From a virus (lineage: Duplodnaviria; Heunggongvirae; Uroviricota; Caudoviricetes), in the IMG/VR virus record IMGVR_UViG_2718218128_000004: a stretch of DNA of 17,970 nucleotides; one strand, written 5' to 3'. The first letter of the stretch is position 1. Each line of letters opens with the position of its first letter. Positions 2,733 to 8,665 of the stretch are shown piece by piece. The position numbers and the translations under genes were made by a program. A model generated the notes under the pieces. It did no database searches and was not told the DNA's origin. It saw only the letters and a program-made list of their open reading frames with translations.

Positions 2733-2776
2733 CCCATCAACCCCGCCATTTCGGTTCAAGGTTGATGGGTTTTTTG
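2733..2776 (+). terminator. Rho-independent terminator downstream of ybjL
   Basis: Perfect 10-bp stem cccatcaacc (2733-2742) / ggttgatggg (2760-2769) followed by TTTTTT (2770-2775); no T-run on the opposite strand, so it acts on plus-strand transcripts. Confidence 0.6.
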
Positions 2777-2855
2777 TTGCCTGAAATTTATGCCGTTTAA
2801 AATCATGACGTTAGGAGCACTGTTTTTTAACGATGGCGACAAAATGGCGGCAGCG

Positions 2856-3074
2856 TCAAAGAGAGAGCGCCACCTGTCCTGATTTCATTGGATGCGGCTG
2901 AACCGGATTTGACTCTTTTGGCGTTGCAATCGAACGAACAAAAGTTTCATGGGTAACAAAAGTATGGCTGCAGTTAATGTTCTGGCACTGGTTGTAACGC
3001 TCTTTGGTCAATGAAGATACCTGAAAACTGCTGCGAGTATGGGCGGCACTTCCACACAGTGGGCAAATCATCAT
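2856..3074 (-). CDS. ogr: Ogr/Delta-family zinc-finger late transcription activator
   Basis: 72-aa product from ATG at 3074 (MMICPLCGSAAHTRSSF...ERYNQCQNINCSHTF...) with the C-x2-C...C-x4-C zinc-binding pattern and clear similarity to P2 Ogr as I recall it; RBS GGGGAG about 10 nt upstream. The track ORF starts 11 codons earlier, which I consider less likely. Confidence 0.85.
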   Translation of the reverse strand: MMICPLCGSAAHTRSSFQVSSLTKERYNQCQNINCSHTFVTHETFVRSIATPKESNPVQPHPMKSGQVALSL

Positions 3075-3111
3075 TTTTCGAGTTCTCCCCATTTTTGCTA
3101 AATTCACAATA

Positions 3112-3139
3112 ATGATACCGCATTATTCCATTTTGAAAA
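3112..3139 (-). promoter_or_regulatory. Putative sigma70 promoter for ogr
   Basis: On the minus strand TTTTCA (3139-3134), 16-nt spacer, TATCAT (3117-3112), about 40 nt upstream of the ogr start codon. Read by eye only. Confidence 0.3.
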
Positions 3140-3274
3140 CTTAAAAGTTCTCCATTGCGAAGAATCACTCCATTTCGAAATCATCAATCTTCACTTCAAG
3201 CTCCAAACTGGTCGTAAAACCGTTATCCGGGCTGACAGTATGCGTCAGGGTGGTAATAGTCCATTCCGCATCAT

Positions 3275-3814
3275 CTACTGTGAATGCGGGTCCGGTGCGG
3301 CAAGATGTTTTGCCATCTTATCATCCACGAACACCTTCAGCTCCAGTACCTTGTCATCCACATACTTGCGGGTTGCCAGCACGACGGCAGGGTCGATTTT
3401 CAGGGTGATATTGTCCGTGCTGCTGGTAATCAGCACCATGCGCACGGTCTGGGTGCGCCCGCTGCCTTCAGCCAGTTGCGGCTTATAGCTTTCCGGGCAG
3501 TTGCCTACGGCAATCAATGCCCCGGACTCATCAAACAGACCCACTTCACGTATCCACCAACCACCCTCATTTTCAGGGATCACCTGTTCAGCAATAATCT
3601 GGCTGCTGTTCTGCGGGTCGATATAGAGCATATTCAGCGCAGCCCGGCGTTTCTCATTTACCAGTGCCGTCTGCTTTGCGTCCGGCGTCGGCAATGCTCC
3701 GCCGCCATCGCCCACCGCCATATGGGTAATTTTTAGCGGCACACCGAGCGCGGCGGCGCTGGCAAGTTTCGCCGCGCCAATATCCGTCAGCAGGGTATAA
3801 AATTTTGTGCTCAT
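3275..3814 (-). pseudogene. H: Tail fibre protein H, N-terminal fragment (truncated)
   Basis: 179-aa ORF whose translation (MSTKFYTLLTDIGAAKLA...MAVGDGGG...ESYKPQLAEGSGRTQT...) resembles the N-terminus of the P2 H tail fibre (about 670 aa as I recall); the ORF stops at 3275 and the downstream genes G to D are absent. Confidence 0.75.
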
Positions 3815-4416
3815 GGATTCACTCTCATTGTGTCAATAACATGGACCGCCCCGCCTTCATGCGCGGTGCCGCCGGAAATAATTGTTTCGTTGATATACGG
3901 ATAGATCGTGATTTCTTCGCCAAGATAACTGGCGGCTCCCACCCAATGCGGACCGCTGGTCTGCAGATTGATGGACATGCCGATCATGTGACGGCTACAT
4001 GGTTTGGCATCGCTTATCAGTCGCTCAAGTTCCAGATAGGTATCTTCAGTGATGCCCTGGTCCTGCACACCAATGTCCAGACGAAACGTGCCCGGTGTTT
4101 CTCCGGTCTGCCACCACTCAATAATGCGGATCAGGAAGCCGAACGGCTCCACCACCCGCCGTACGGCACTGGTGGTTCCTTTGTGCTGATGAATATAAAA
4201 AGCATCCTTCACTACCTGGCGTTTGACGCTTTCTGTCCAGCCCTCGTCCCAGCGATCCACAGAGAACGCCCAGGCGAGATAAGGCAGGAAACTGACCGGA
4301 CAGGTTGCCGGATTCCACAAGTCACGCAGTGACACCTGCAGATCAGAAATCCCGCTACAGGTTTGCGCCAGTCGGCGCTCCAGTGGCGTGGAACCCGGTG
4401 GCAGCAGACTATTCAT
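3811..4416 (-). CDS. I: Baseplate assembly protein I
   Basis: 201-aa ORF (…LWNPATCPVSFLPYLAWAFSVDRWDEGW…GTFRLDIGVQ…) similar to P2 gpI; its stop overlaps the start of the H fragment (ATGA overlap at 3811-3814), as in intact P2-like tail operons. Confidence 0.85.
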   Translation of the reverse strand: MNSLLPPGSTPLERRLAQTCSGISDLQVSLRDLWNPATCPVSFLPYLAWAFSVDRWDEGWTESVKRQVVKDAFYIHQHKGTTSAVRRVVEPFGFLIRIIEWWQTGETPGTFRLDIGVQDQGITEDTYLELERLISDAKPCSRHMIGMSINLQTSGPHWVGAASYLGEEITIYPYINETIISGGTAHEGGAVHVIDTMRVNP

Positions 4417-4855
4417 CCGTTCCCCCGTTGGTCACGCTCCACTGAGTACATGATGCCGCCTGCGTTTTGTTCAGGACCACATCAGCCAGCGGTGAAGCCA
4501 GCTCCACACGTTGAACACCCTCAACATGCAGCGCGGCAAAAATAGCACTACGGCGAATATCCCGACCGAGCCGCGTCTGACTGGCGATGTACCTCTGCAG
4601 GCTGACTTTTGCCGCTGCCATTACCGGCTCTGCTTCCGGTCCCGGATAAAGAAAAATGGTAGCTTCCACACGGTACGGGATGATTTCTGCGCTGCGAACC
4701 GTCAGACGGTCAGCCACCGGGCGGACGTTCTCACTGTTCAGGGCTTTCTCCACCACATCCAGCAAGTCTTTTTCTGCTGTTCCGTCGCCTTCACGACTCA
4801 GGACAGTCAGTACCACCTCTGCAGGTGCCGGACTGGTTGCACTGGCATCCGCCAC
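4409..4855 (-). pseudogene. J: Baseplate assembly protein J, C-terminal fragment (N-terminal half missing)
   Basis: 148-aa ORF matching the C-terminal half of P2 gpJ (…VRPVADRLTV…LYPGPE…LGRDIRRSAIFAALHVEGVQRVELASPLADVVL…); P2 gpJ is about 300 aa as I recall, and the genes normally upstream (W, V, S, R ... O, P) are absent. Confidence 0.75.
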
Positions 4856-4964
4856 CCGACCGTCGGCGCTTCGGGCATGAAATTCATAAGCGGCAGTTGG
4901 CCCCGCAACAGAAAGCCCTTCAACCCAGCCGTATCAGTTCACGAAAGGCAGCATTTTTCATCTG

Positions 4965-5504
4965 ATGGAACCGGACATCAACCAGGAGATCTACGGCTTG
5001 CCCGGCTATCTTTCTGCCATTCCATCCGCCCTGCTCAACGAATCCGCCACGCTGTTCCGCCGTAAGTATTACATCAACGGCAGCCATGCAGGCTTCATCA
5101 TGTACATGACCGACGCCGCGCAGAATCAGGAGGATGTGAACAACCTCCGCAACGCGATGAAAAGCGCCAAAGGTCCAGGCAACTTCCGCAACCTGTTTAT
5201 GTACTCGCCTAACGGCAAAAAGGACGGGCTTCAGATCATTCCTCTGTCAGAAGTCGCGGCGAAGGATGAGTTTCTGAATATCAAAAATGTCAGTCGCGAT
5301 GACATGATGGCAGCACACCGCGTACCGCCGCAAATGATGGGGATTATGCCGAATAATGTTGGGGGTTTTGGGGATGTGGAGAAGGCGAGTCGAGTTTTTG
5401 TGCGAAATGAATTGAGGCCACTACAAAAGAGCCTATTAGAGCTGAACAACTGGTTAAAGGAGGATGTAATACATTTTGAGGATTATAACTTAGATATTCA
5501 ATAA
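4965..5504 (+). pseudogene. Q: Portal protein Q, C-terminal fragment
   Basis: 179-aa ORF similar to the C-terminal half of P2 portal gpQ (…KGPGNFRNLFMY…LQIIPLSEVAAKDEFLNIKNVSRDDMMAAHRVPPQMMGIMPNNVGGFGDVEKA…); opposite strand to the tail genes, as expected for the P2 Q-P operon; N-terminal half and gene P are missing. Confidence 0.75.
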
Positions 5505-5508
5505 TCTT

Positions 5509-5532
5509 AAAAACCTGCATATGCAGGTTTTT
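5509..5532. terminator. Bidirectional rho-independent terminator
   Basis: Perfect palindrome aaacctgcat/atgcaggttt (5511-5530) flanked by an A-run upstream and T-run downstream; sits between the convergent Q fragment (+) and the three-gene cassette (-). Confidence 0.5.
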
Positions 5533-5567
5533 ACATTATATAGTTATAAAACTAACAAAAATCATAT

Positions 5568-6233
5568 TCAAAGCTCTGAGTCTACAGGCTCATGATAAAG
5601 GTTTACAGGGTAGTGTATAACCTCATAATTAAGTTGACTAACAGTGTGAGTATGTTGACTGTAAAAAACCAATGGGTTTCTCTTACAAGGAGTTATCGAG
5701 ATAGACTTACAAGCATGAATTCTTGGAGCCGATTTATCTAAATGAGCCTTCCACTTAGTCATCATTTCATTACATTTTTTATTACGCGTATATATAATTA
5801 ACCCACCACTTGCACTGTCTACAGTACCAGTGCTATATCGCTCAGTGAGTTGTGCATACCCTTTAAATAAATAACTATATGAACCAGTGTGTTTTTTGGC
5901 CTCGCCATGCCAAGTAAATCTATTCAACTTTATTGTTATATCACAATGACCTCGTTGATTATTTTCATGATATGCTTCAATTCCCATATCTTTATTTTTT
6001 ATATTTGCCAGTAAAATTAAAGTAAGCTGATCTTCTGTTAAATCAAAATTCAATTTATTTGAATTTTCCTCAATTGCCTGTACAGCAGAATCAAGCTCAA
6101 TTCTTACAAACTGTTTGAAGTTCTCATACGACTGGAGAGCAAACCTAACGCGAGTAATAGAAGCATTGATACGCTGAAGAAAAATATCATTATCAATTTC
6201 AGCTAAACTCATTGGTGCAGACATTTTTAACAT
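5568..6233 (-). CDS. Hypothetical protein, gene 3 of AT-rich three-gene cassette (221 aa); possible PD-(D/E)xK-like nuclease motif
   Basis: ORF with ATG at 6233-6231 overlapping the stop codon of the upstream gene by 1 nt (TGATG); strongly AT-rich; no family recognised by eye; segment HCDITIKLNRFTWHGEAKK contains a D...ExK arrangement. Confidence 0.6.
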   Translation of the reverse strand: MLKMSAPMSLAEIDNDIFLQRINASITRVRFALQSYENFKQFVRIELDSAVQAIEENSNKLNFDLTEDQLTLILLANIKNKDMGIEAYHENNQRGHCDITIKLNRFTWHGEAKKHTGSYSYLFKGYAQLTERYSTGTVDSASGGLIIYTRNKKCNEMMTKWKAHLDKSAPRIHACKSISITPCKRNPLVFYSQHTHTVSQLNYEVIHYPVNLYHEPVDSEL

Positions 6234-6667
6234 CAGACAATATCCTTTAATTTAGATTCATCTAATGTAAAAAAAGGAAAGACGAAGGACTTATAGTCAT
6301 ACATAATCTCCCCTGTAAATGGGTTTACTAAAGATTGATTAATTTCAGCCTCTATAACATCTTCTAACTCAAGCTCAATAGGATCATGAAAATCATCAAT
6401 AAACCAATAATTGAGTTTTAAAAACTCAACCTTTGGACTACAAAGAATTTGTATAGCTGGGTACACAACCTGCTCATATGCTTCAGGTTGTATACATCCT
6501 TTATAACCATTAACGATACTAAATAAATCTTTATAACTCAGAGCTATATTAGGCGATTTCTTTGCTCTCACACCAATTTCATCATACAAATAGCAAGCTA
6601 GCGCCCCTATATCAGGGCGCTCTGCACATATTTCTTTGATGATCTGGGGCATATCACCATCCTTCAT
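6233..6667 (-). CDS. Hypothetical acidic protein, gene 2 of AT-rich three-gene cassette (144 aa from ATG 6667)
   Basis: ORF in the track begins at TTG 6679; I prefer ATG 6667, which has GGAG 6 nt upstream. Acidic C-terminal stretch (DDFHDPIELELEDVIEAEINQ). No family recognised. Confidence 0.6.
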   Translation of the reverse strand: MKDGDMPQIIKEICAERPDIGALACYLYDEIGVRAKKSPNIALSYKDLFSIVNGYKGCIQPEAYEQVVYPAIQILCSPKVEFLKLNYWFIDDFHDPIELELEDVIEAEINQSLVNPFTGEIMYDYKSFVFPFFTLDESKLKDIV

Positions 6668-6679
6668 TGCTGACTCCAA

Positions 6680-7786
6680 TTATAATATCAGCTTTGTGAG
6701 GGTTTCGAAATCATCTTTGGATATACATTTGCTTAATATAGCATAATTGACAGGAGAGCACCCACTACCACCTAAATGTCTGCGTAATGTTCCTGGAATG
6801 ATAAGCTCTACACTATCCGCCAATTGCAATTTTGGATTATTCCTATCTACTCTAATTCCAATACGATATAAACCAATATTACCTACAGCTTTAATGCCCT
6901 CTTTATTAAACAGATCATCACGCAAGTCTTTCTTAGCCACATTTTTCTTTTCCTTATGAGTGGTTCCCTCATAAGTTAAAAATGACAAATCGAACACCTT
7001 ATAACTTAAACTTGAATATGGCATTACATTTTGCTTGAAAATTGGCTCAATTAATGGATAAAAATCCTTTTCCGATGAATTAAATTGATAACCTGCGCAA
7101 TTATATAACTCACGAATAAAATTCGTTTTCGCAAAAACGATATTATCACCAACAACATTACCATTAGTATCAATTAATACATGGATTTTATTTGAAGCTG
7201 AATCTAATATACACACATCAAAACACTGACGTTTTTCTTTTCTCTTCGCAATGATTTCATCAAACTGTTTGTATGCTGCTAACTTTGACGGAGGGACTTT
7301 CTCTCTTACAACCAGCTCCCTGATAGATGAAAATACCAAAATAGACTGAGTATTTTGCTTAGAGTAATTAACAAGCTCAAGTTGATTTTTAATAGCATGC
7401 TGTAATTGAACATCATCAACAATCGTTTCGACTAATGATGTTGGTTGCTTCATCATATTCCATTGGCGAGCATATCTATCATCAAGTAATTTAATTACTT
7501 GACTATCTACAGACAAACTAAATATTGCTTTTTCACCATAAACAACCTGCCCAAAGACTAAATCATTTACACTTGCAATGATTTTGTCAAATTTTTGCCT
7601 ATCTTTCTTTTTAAAATCAATGAGGCTTTCTAGTATTTTGTCGTTTGTTGCTTCACGCCCTCTACCTGTAGGTAGCCCTAAAGAAGCAATAATTGGTCTG
7701 GCGATATGCCACGTAAAACGTTCAGTTAAGGCTAAGATCGACTTTAACTCAAAGTCAGAAAGCACCACTGGGACACCACTTGTCAT
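6680..7786 (-). CDS. Hypothetical protein, gene 1 of AT-rich three-gene cassette (368 aa from ATG 7786)
   Basis: Track ORF starts at GTG 7795; ATG 7786 has AGGTG 6 nt upstream. Stop codon directly abuts the gene 2 start region. No Walker A, HUH or other motif recognised by eye. Confidence 0.6.
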   Translation of the reverse strand: MTSGVPVVLSDFELKSILALTERFTWHIARPIIASLGLPTGRGREATNDKILESLIDFKKKDRQKFDKIIASVNDLVFGQVVYGEKAIFSLSVDSQVIKLLDDRYARQWNMMKQPTSLVETIVDDVQLQHAIKNQLELVNYSKQNTQSILVFSSIRELVVREKVPPSKLAAYKQFDEIIAKRKEKRQCFDVCILDSASNKIHVLIDTNGNVVGDNIVFAKTNFIRELYNCAGYQFNSSEKDFYPLIEPIFKQNVMPYSSLSYKVFDLSFLTYEGTTHKEKKNVAKKDLRDDLFNKEGIKAVGNIGLYRIGIRVDRNNPKLQLADSVELIIPGTLRRHLGGSGCSPVNYAILSKCISKDDFETLTKLIL

Positions 7787-7849
7787 AACATGCACCTAGT
7801 CAACCCAAAAGCAATTGAAAATCGCTCTTGTCTTAATTTTTTCCATCAA

Positions 7850-7877
7850 TATCTAACAAATTACCTTAATGTTGAAA
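7850..7877 (-). promoter_or_regulatory. Putative promoter of the three-gene cassette
   Basis: Minus strand: TTGCAA (7877-7872), 16-nt spacer, GGTAAT (7855-7850), about 60 nt upstream of ATG 7786. Weak -10; by-eye prediction in AT-rich DNA. Confidence 0.25.
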
Positions 7878-7936
7878 AAGTTTGCAAGCCATTTGCGTCT
7901 AAAAAGTGACTTGACTCAATGTGTTACAAAGCTTAG

Positions 7937-7955
7937 CGAGCGCGCGCTCGTATCC
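7937..7955 (-). other. cos-like sequence (possible cohesive-end site of the P2/186 family)
   Basis: Minus strand reads GGCGTGGCGGGGATACGAG; the first 13 nt match the 186/P2 cohesive-end sequence as I remember it (GGCGTGGCGGGGAAAGCAT for 186). Orientation agrees with the prophage orientation. Recalled from memory, not verified. Confidence 0.3.
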
Positions 7956-8007
7956 CCGCCACGCCTGCCCGCTTTATGGAGCGATTTTCATGCACCTGCA
8001 TGACATA

Positions 8008-8034
8008 AGCAAAAGCCCGCCAGTTCTGGCGGGC
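8008..8034 (-). terminator. Rho-independent terminator for the leftward SOS-regulated transcript
   Basis: Stem gcccgcc (8015-8021) / ggcgggc (8028-8034) with loop agttct; on the minus strand the hairpin is followed by a T-run (plus-strand A-run at 8011-8014); about 70 nt downstream of the 88-aa ORF. Confidence 0.45.
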
Positions 8035-8101
8035 CTCAGCGAAAACGATCCTCAAACGATCATGCGATCTCATGCAGCATAGACATGCACCCAGCCGGTT
8101 G

Positions 8102-8368
8102 TCAGAAAAGCGGCATTTGTGGGGTGTATCCAACGGGTAAAGACCGTCTGAGCTGCTCGCCCTCATAATCAATGATGAAGACCATCGCCTCACTACCTGA
8201 TACAGGATGATCGGAGCCAAACAAAAACACATCATCCATGGTTCTTCCCATCCAGTACTTGCCGCCATACTCTACACGACGCTGAAACAAAACCCATCCA
8301 CCAAGTTCGTCACGTTCAAGCGCCTGCCCCTCATAAACGGTCTGGAATTTGCTGTTGGATTTACCCAT
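8102..8368 (-). CDS. Hypothetical small protein (88 aa), second gene of LexA-controlled operon
   Basis: ATG 8368 preceded by GAGG 9 nt upstream; in-frame TAG upstream confirms it is a separate cistron from the preceding small gene. Function not recognised; position corresponds to the tum/SOS operon of phage 186. Confidence 0.6.
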   Translation of the reverse strand: MGKSNSKFQTVYEGQALERDELGGWVLFQRRVEYGGKYWMGRTMDDVFLFGSDHPVSGSEAMVFIIDYEGEQLRRSLPVGYTPQMPLF

Positions 8369-8446
8369 GGCTAACGCCTCGTTGTACTCGTTGTTTAACC
8401 TTGCTGACGTAAGAAGCTAGTTCTCACGCCAGCAACGTTCCTGCTG

Positions 8447-8635
8447 TTAACTGGGAAGATCCATTGAGCGGTTGTATTCATGAGCACGAATCTTTGCCAT
8501 CAGCTCATCCGTTAACTCAGAAACCCACTGGATAGCCAGTCGCTTCTCTTCATCATCACACTCACTAGCCGCCACAAGCTTGACAAAAAAATCAATGCGC
8601 TGGAGCTTCAACGACTCCAAAAAATAGTCTTGCAT
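8447..8635 (-). CDS. Hypothetical small protein (62 aa), first gene of LexA-controlled operon
   Basis: I place the start at ATG 8635 (strong AGGAGG 4 nt upstream) because the track ORF start at 8758 lies upstream of the promoter; product MQDYFLESLKLQRIDFF... Confidence 0.5.
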   Translation of the reverse strand: MQDYFLESLKLQRIDFFVKLVAASECDDEEKRLAIQWVSELTDELMAKIRAHEYNRSMDLPS

Positions 8636-8665
8636 CTTCCCTCCTATCACCAAACACACAGAAAG

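Follow-up and report, generated by a model that had tools for sequence, protein, structure and literature searches.

The gpA-gpQ region of phage P2 has been defined as a hotspot of anti-phage systems by Rousset et al. 2022 (PMC9122126), and many cargoes at this site are validated defences (PMC9122126; bioRxiv 10.64898/2026.02.27.708500), among them Rst_3HP, which was validated against P1 (Rousset 2022, PMC9122126). The hotspot is confirmed by 1511 P2 elements, about half of which have no recognised system (bioRxiv 10.64898/2026.02.27.708500). Another relevant group of proteins is represented by RexA of phage lambda, a member of the RdgC/IML3/CHL4 fold family, with RexA homologues showing non-specific DNA binding (Adams et al. 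2024, PMC11077077). Here we analyze a cassette of three genes, further referred to as A, B and C, encoded on the minus strand of the virus record IMGVR_UViG_2718218128_000004 (Caudoviricetes; the whole analyzed stretch of 17,970 nt is called the window). The analysis favours, with moderate confidence, the reading of this triad as cargo of the P2/186 gpA-gpQ hotspot that functions in anti-phage defence, and the system is probably an undescribed one.

Gene A (6680-7786, minus strand; 368 aa from ATG; WP_073507419) encodes a predicted RdgC-fold protein and has the ribosome-binding site AGGTG 7 nt upstream of its ATG, the longest reading frame beginning at GTG in position 7795. It is followed by gene B (6233-6667, minus strand; 144 aa from ATG; WP_021580614), with GGAG 6 nt upstream, encoding a small acidic soluble protein, and by gene C (5568-6233, minus strand; 221 aa; WP_021580615), whose product has a predicted PD-(D/E)xK nuclease fold. 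The A stop and the B ATG are 12 nt apart, and the B stop and the C start share one base (TGATG). The initial annotation, made from the sequence alone, had described these same three reading frames and their tight packing, and RefSeq calls the same coding sequences. According to sequence comparisons, they are real genes and not chance reading frames, since each product matches a PHROG family of unknown function (E-values 2e-113 for A, 3e-48 for B with phrog_11490, and 2.5e-83 for C) and the gene order is kept across divergent loci, even where identity drops to ~25-35%. The GC content of the triad is 34.2% (34.1, 34.3 and 33.9% for A, B and C, respectively), compared to 53.6% in gpA; thus the compositional contrast seen in the initial annotation is real, while the 27% quoted there fits only some of the 60-nt lines, whose GC content spans 22-47%.

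Gene C is the most conserved of the three. A word-based search yielded 38 clusters of relatives, all from Enterobacterales, in which residues E67, D68, H96, D98, E111, A112, K113, Q128, R132 and Y133 are invariant. They include a PD-(D/E)xK signature, D98 ... E111-A-K113, with the upstream helix glutamate E67. An exhaustive profile search of 1.84 billion representatives identified 578 clusters at E<=1e-3 (458 at E<=1e-10), most members having 200-230 aa, and the equivalent catalytic residues are invariant in 61 distant representatives. The AlphaFold2 model of C is confident (pLDDT 90) and consists of an alpha-beta-beta-beta-alpha-beta restriction-endonuclease core, where D98 is situated at the start of strand 2 and E111-x-K113 on strand 3, preceded by an N-terminal three-helix region. 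The best structural matches are type II endonucleases of the BamHI family and McrC, and the structural neighbours include the defence and toxin nucleases HamA, McrC, NucC, Can2 and CdiA-CT, while no Pfam model describes this type of nuclease domain.

Moreover, about ten C homologues are C-terminal domains of STAND NTPases, following either NACHT and HEAT or NB-ARC and TPR regions. By its modelled fold and motif, C belongs to the PD-(D/E)xK nucleases, in a family employed by bacteria as an immune effector module, and it is predicted to be active as a nuclease. Its role as the effector is proposed because of the fold, the conserved active site, the defence nucleases among its neighbours, and the use of the same domain as the terminal module of STAND NTPases. 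The initial annotation had assigned no motif to any of the three products, which was wrong for C and incomplete in the case of A; the structure predictions and fold searches that it had proposed returned the RdgC fold for A and the PD-(D/E)xK nuclease fold for C.

The fusion proteins are P0108, P0138, P0151, P0162, P0168, P0174, P0224, P0220, P0130 and P0211, and one is fused to a LexA-type S24 peptidase. Standalone homologues P0091, P0123 and P0219 have long Lys/Ala/Pro-rich tails resembling histone H1, their composition suggesting added non-specific DNA binding. In public records the triad proteins are labelled hypothetical, and occasionally gene C or its fragments are named "metal-binding protein ZinT"; this identity finds no support in the fold or family analysis and looks like a propagated annotation error.

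The product of gene B is acidic across the family (pI 4.3-5.7), and none of the three proteins has transmembrane segments (the maximal Kyte-Doolittle hydropathy over 19 residues does not exceed 1.1). B is the fastest-evolving member of the triad: the word-based search finds only 11 close clusters, while profile searches of the fetched loci recover B in every triad. An alignment of 20-25 divergent loci shows a conserved C-terminal motif, FIDD ... hP-x-T-G-E ... PYF. A different arrangement is observed in one GC-rich phage contig (JGI metagenome contig Ga0604934_0015514, locus L004, positions 2765-4764), where A is replaced by a 458-aa protein with a TIR_2 domain and a transmembrane region. The C-terminal ~75 aa of this protein are homologous to the C-terminal half of B (BLASTP 1e-7; HMM 3e-6), and a C homologue with 37% identity follows directly, with overlapping start and stop codons. 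This fusion indicates that B is a domain travelling with C that can be attached to a different partner. The same contig also encodes a terminase and an S78 protease.

These features of B and C bear on another explanation, in which the triad is a tripartite toxin-antitoxin (TA) or addiction module stabilising the prophage, with C as the toxin, B as the antitoxin and A as a DNA-binding regulator or chaperone, any effect on phages being secondary. Indeed, B is small, acidic, fastest-evolving and translationally coupled directly upstream of the nuclease gene, the toxin nuclease CdiA-CT is among the structural neighbours of C, many TA modules occur at such loci, and the cargo is intact in a prophage stripped of most structural genes. 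Still, a 368-aa protein with the RdgC fold would be atypical as an antitoxin, repressor or chaperone, the C domain occurs in STAND NTPases and beside TIR proteins, which are immune architectures, and the location is a defence hotspot, although TA and defence functions are not mutually exclusive. We consider this explanation unlikely.

Gene A has 40 clusters of relatives found by the word-based search, with the same narrow host range and on the same contigs as C. Its structural model is good (pLDDT 86, pTM 0.84), and the closest Foldseek matches are RdgC proteins from two species (E-values 3e-6 and 2.7e-5, probability 1.0), followed by CENP-N and CENP-L. The base and centre domains of the RdgC fold were found in A by two methods, CHL4 being also matched, and beyond this fold A has an extra N-terminal region of four helices, ~85 aa long. 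According to the model, A is thus an RdgC-fold protein with an additional N-terminal helical region. It has pI ~9 in the window, and the family is mostly basic; given the RdgC fold and this mostly basic charge, A is predicted to bind DNA.

At the sequence level, the Pfam RdgC model matches neither A from the window nor 20 divergent homologues at E-values up to 1, and profile searches of PDB sequences revealed no relatives of A or C. The most conserved stretch of A, residues 263-297 (G-x-V-x-x-L-x-F ... D-L-R-x-D-x-F), aligns locally with residues 246-272 of RdgC (DDGSLKRLKF ... LRDQNEDIDREDF), though not significantly (hhalign E-value 0.27); this local likeness may be a trace of true remote homology. 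A SAP-like helix-extended-helix motif seen by eye in residues 26-55 of A has no Pfam support and was not relied on.

A DNA-binding protein encoded together with a nuclease could also constitute a restriction system without a methylase (type IV-like), where C would cut DNA directly and A, with B, would recognise some property of foreign DNA, for example a base modification, with neither triggered activation nor cell death. The best structural matches of C, BamHI-family type II endonucleases and McrC, agree with this explanation, as does the predicted DNA-binding fold of A. The cassette region (5568-7952) contains only A, B and C and no methyltransferase, as expected for type IV; the Dam-type methylase of the window (12156-13073) lies ~6 kb from gene C and adjoins gpA among the replication genes. 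We regard such a system as quite improbable here.

The three genes behave as a unit. Among the first 36 related loci, A, B and C are found in the same order in all but the TIR-linked one described above, including versions with 25-40% identity, which come from GC-rich, AT-rich and Pseudomonas-like contigs. A search with the distant C motif revealed the triad in 18 of 18 further viral contigs (GC content 32-62%), and a search anchored on A found it in 17 of 17 loci; these two sets share many contigs, so that ~60 distinct loci were examined in all. All standalone C homologues whose neighbours were examined in these loci belong to A-B-C triads, with the exception of the single TIR-linked variant, and the identities of A, B and C fall together across the loci.

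Triads in the P2 hotspot keep their gene order and coupling and are always convergent with the portal gene; the respective gpA proteins are only 34-93% identical. Such P2-like prophages are found in E. coli, Salmonella and Klebsiella. Other sites are prophage ends, beside integrases or gpD, as well as Klebsiella phage KP12 and a Citrobacter island, in which the triad lies beside a WYL regulator, a pyocin/CdiI pair and a transposase. A diverged AT-rich triad occupies a moron location between the antiterminator Q and stx1AB in Stx1a-converting lambdoid phages (seven phage records), and was found in 23 of the 5426 complete E. coli genomes, O145:H28 among them. The cassette as a whole is mobile between temperate phages that are unrelated. 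Close relatives were identified in only 3 of ~100,000 species-representative genomes, consistent with patchy, mobile carriage.

In phage Stx1_499 (LC567825.1, locus L058, positions 3475-5582) the triad proteins have 350, 130 and 221 aa, the triad has 33.7% GC compared to 45.9% for the locus, and it is encoded on the strand opposite to Q and stx1AB. The P2-type and the Stx-type triads occur together in strain TUM9812. In some cases, triads are situated beside other defence genes: one (L041) adjoins the type I restriction gene hsdR, and a distant triad (L054) neighbours a gene in positions 5530-6432 with a weak match (E-value 8.9e-6, short of the curated cutoff) to Pfam Beta_protein, to which the beta gene of the P4 gop-beta-cII defence system belongs.

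At the P2 site, megablast detected the flanks (the portal end and the cos side) in 1277 of the 5426 complete E. coli genomes and the full cassette in only 21 of them, which represent two alleles (~99% and ~84% identity). In the INPHARED phage collection, megablast matches only the cos flank (window positions 7940-8090); a later tblastn search of phages found triad carriers that megablast had missed. As the flanks are common and the cassette is rare, and both phage and E. coli flank matches start at 7940, the region from 5568 to ~7940 is a variable cargo slot. This bears out the initial annotation, which had proposed foreign cargo in a P2-like prophage, and identifies the slot as the published gpA-gpQ hotspot. 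The cassette was in fact catalogued there: Table S5 of Rousset 2022 lists WP_021580614 (B) and WP_021580615 (C) beside WP_021580613, evidently an allele of A, all as "hypothetical" (PMC9122126).

These distributions also concern the possibility that the cassette serves the life cycle of the phage itself, as a recombination or replication accessory, or that it is a selfish homing-type nuclease cassette, which would explain its own spread. E. coli RdgC is a recombination-associated DNA-binding protein and lambda RexA also biases the lysis-lysogeny switch (PMC11077077). RdgC proteins modulate RecA, and in such an accessory the nuclease would process DNA; PD-(D/E)xK homing nucleases exist, and the cassette is found beside cos and, in lambdoid phages, beside Q/stx. 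On the other hand, ~0.4% of complete E. coli genomes carry the cassette, whereas 24% have the flanks, which shows it to be dispensable; it is intact in a defective prophage and occurs in non-phage islands, three co-evolving genes exceed the needs of a homing nuclease, and the NACHT fusions and TIR adjacency of C point to immunity. We find a role in the phage life cycle highly improbable.

For the anti-phage defence system a working scheme may be suggested, in which A would act as a sensor, B as an adaptor and C as a nuclease. A, bound to DNA, would recognise some sign of infection, for example the ends of incoming linear DNA or intermediates of phage replication or recombination; this role is proposed since its fold is analogous to those of RdgC and the Rex exclusion protein. 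The small acidic B would couple A to C and/or keep C inactive, a role as adaptor and/or inhibitor that is a guess from its obligate position, its charge, and the fusion with the TIR-transmembrane protein. Upon sensing, the C nuclease would be released or activated and would cut DNA, which would stop phage replication either directly or via abortive infection. This specific wiring, including the contacts between the three proteins and the trigger, is tentative and considerably more doubtful than a defence function as such.

Several observations weigh against defence or against particular parts of this scheme. The Foldseek TM-scores for A are low (0.35-0.43), at the sequence level hhalign gives probabilities of only 0.2% and 0.1% for A versus RdgC and RexA, respectively, RexA is absent from the top fold matches of A, and some A homologues are acidic. 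B from the window has no recognisable family in Pfam, NCBIfam or PADLOC, and Pfam and PADLOC scans of its divergent homologues revealed nothing recurrent. The combination of a nuclease and a small acidic protein would also suit a toxin-antitoxin or addiction module, and structurally C is nearest to sequence-specific type II enzymes, making restriction rather than triggered activation possible. The triad, though catalogued, is absent from the systems cloned in Rousset 2022 (Table S2; PMC9122126). Finally, a consensus scan of positions 7796-7952 revealed no clear sigma-70 promoter and no site near the consensus.

The latter region belongs to the non-coding leader separating the cos core from gene A (7787-7952, minus strand, 37% GC), which should hold the cassette's own promoter. 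A promoter-like site was found by the scan in positions 8709-8682, on the same strand as the cassette, so that read-through into the cassette is possible. The upstream edge of the variable cassette is marked by a cos core of the P2/186 type (7953-7965, minus strand), GGCGTGGCGGGGA, which occurs once in the window and was matched in none of 200 shuffles. At the other end, downstream of gene C, lies an intrinsic terminator (5509-5533, minus strand), AAAAACCTGCATATGCAGGTTTTT, a symmetric hairpin flanked by A5 and T5. It was overlooked by a simple scanner and is supported by RNA folding (-15.7 kcal/mol, z-score -5.1, followed by U5, with 0 of 200 shuffles as stable). Due to its symmetry, the hairpin could also stop transcription of the convergent portal fragment, which ends at 5504. 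The cassette thus lies between the portal remnant and a cos-like site, where the initial annotation had placed it. No Rfam RNAs were found in positions 5300-9900.

The source of the window was matched in complete E. coli genomes by megablast: strain S3 (NZ_CP010228.1) has 100% identity over the 2.7-kb region. According to the RefSeq annotation, this is a decayed P2/186-like prophage in the ybjL/rcdA interval, comprising ogr, fragments of gpD, a tail gene, baseplate J and portal, then the three hypothetical genes, small genes, gpA, the Dam-type methylase, a cII-like gene, the CI repressor and the integrase. Heavy deletion is seen in window positions ~2850-5504 (L001 9766-12105), where the partial gpD, tail, baseplate J and portal genes abut. 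No capsid or terminase genes are left in the prophage, while every cargo open reading frame (ORF) is intact, which suggests that the cargo was kept after phage inactivation.

Two other accessory regions are present in the same prophage. The first one, on the gpA side of cos in the same hotspot (the old/tin position), is a pair of genes in positions 8874-9703 on the plus strand with 34% GC, encoding a 124-aa protein (phrog_18061) and, in an overlapping frame, a 152-aa membrane protein (phrog_16940; Kyte-Doolittle peak 2.97) with a faint match to NCBIfam RdrD (1.7e-3); the two genes may form a further small pair acting in defence or exclusion. The second one is a 325-aa ORF (15853-16830, plus strand, 35% GC) with one hydrophobic segment, matching phrog_2628, a family of unknown function, at 1.4e-95. 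It is located between the CI repressor and the integrase, in a further accessory slot described for P2-like phages.

Confirmation of the phenotype would add a widespread defence system to those known, as the C family comprises ~450-580 clusters (at the 50% identity level). In such a system, the RdgC/RexA fold would be connected to a nuclease effector via a new adaptor domain, with all proteins being soluble, and the nuclease effector domain, absent from Pfam, would be one that bacterial NLR-like proteins share. The carriers are medically relevant: besides Stx1a-converting phages of Shiga toxin-producing E. coli (STEC), they include P2-like prophages found in E. coli, Salmonella and Klebsiella. 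Carriage by temperate phages bears on phage therapy and on prophage-prophage competition.

A broader generalization, which we consider rather unlikely, is that RdgC/RexA-fold proteins are general sensors of phage infection that read DNA topology or nucleoprotein intermediates and are wired to interchangeable effectors. The sensor could, for example, clamp onto the free ends of linear DNA entering the cell, and the effector would be the RexB channel in lambda and the PD-(D/E)xK nuclease, via adaptor B, in the triad; the B-C pair could alternatively be joined to the TIR-membrane protein, and the C domain alone to NACHT-HEAT NTPases. If true, the triad would provide a soluble system for studying the signal detected by Rex-type sensors, which has been an open question since the 1950s.

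Comparison with known systems is consistent with the triad being an undescribed one. A, B and C from the window have no match in PADLOC-DB v2.0.0 (2023) at E-values up to 1, as well as in Pfam (2025), NCBIfam (June 2026) and PDB sequences (2026). The Pfam and PADLOC scans were repeated on 20-61 divergent homologues, and for A and B gave only scattered single PADLOC matches with nothing recurrent. In the full-text literature, searches with the WP accessions and for RdgC plus defence yielded no description of the triad. The proposal of the initial annotation, a candidate undescribed defence system, agrees with these scans as well as with the hotspot, the nuclease gene C and the mobility of the cassette as a unit; the PADLOC check named there leaves the candidate undescribed, and the family scans found no homology of the triad products to ordinary phage structural or metabolic proteins, which would have spoken for a different role.

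Three genes without predicted domains at the same gpA-gpQ hotspot are also a feature of Rst_3HP (hp+hp+hp, pFR109). The two are not the same system: Hp1-Hp3 have ~336, 355 and 226 aa, and the profiles of A, B and C score at most 2.2 bits against them (hmmsearch). A PADLOC candidate, PDC-S54, has the nuclease domain in common with C, being matched by 20 of the 61 distant C representatives (best E-value 1.4e-10; the matches cover profile positions ~249-324 of 410). Unlike the triad, it is a single-gene candidate, with no counterpart of A and B, and C from the window does not match it at E-value 1; no literature on PDC-S54 was found.

Other systems share the nuclease fold. In STAND/NLR defences (Avs, bNACHT), homologues of the C domain form the C-terminal module of NACHT + HEAT and NB-ARC + TPR proteins, with the nuclease situated after the repeats, whereas Pfam and NCBIfam scans revealed neither an NTPase nor a repeat sensor in the triad. 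Hachiman consists of the HamA nuclease and the HamB helicase, while the triad lacks a helicase, neither A nor B is related to HamB, and the PADLOC models of HamA and HamB do not match the proteins from the window. Type II enzymes of the BamHI family (OkrAI, BamHI, BstYI, BglII) have ~8% identity with C, and differ from the triad in that no cognate methyltransferase is present in the cassette and the third catalytic element of C is E-x-K.

As for gene A, E. coli RdgC (PDB 2owl) is a recombination-associated ring-shaped DNA-binding protein, while A lacks a Pfam RdgC match (hhalign probability 0.2%), has the additional ~85 aa of N-terminal helices, invariably accompanies B and C, and is found on mobile elements. 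A parallel in overall logic is offered by lambda RexAB, which, like the triad, is encoded by a prophage and expressed from the lysogen, and combines a sensor with a separate effector, as proposed for the triad. RexA has the RdgC/IML3/CHL4 fold according to PMC11077077, and A is connected to this fold family, through RdgC only, by its matches to RdgC, CENP-L, CENP-N and CHL4. Still, A has no sequence similarity to RexA (hhalign probability 0.1%), which is not among its fold matches, and, in contrast to RexB with its four transmembrane segments, B and C have none. The predicted effector of the triad has a nuclease fold, and a third, acidic protein is added. In sum, the building blocks of the triad (a DNA-binding sensor fold, a PD-(D/E)xK effector, a hotspot location) are familiar, so it is not categorically new.

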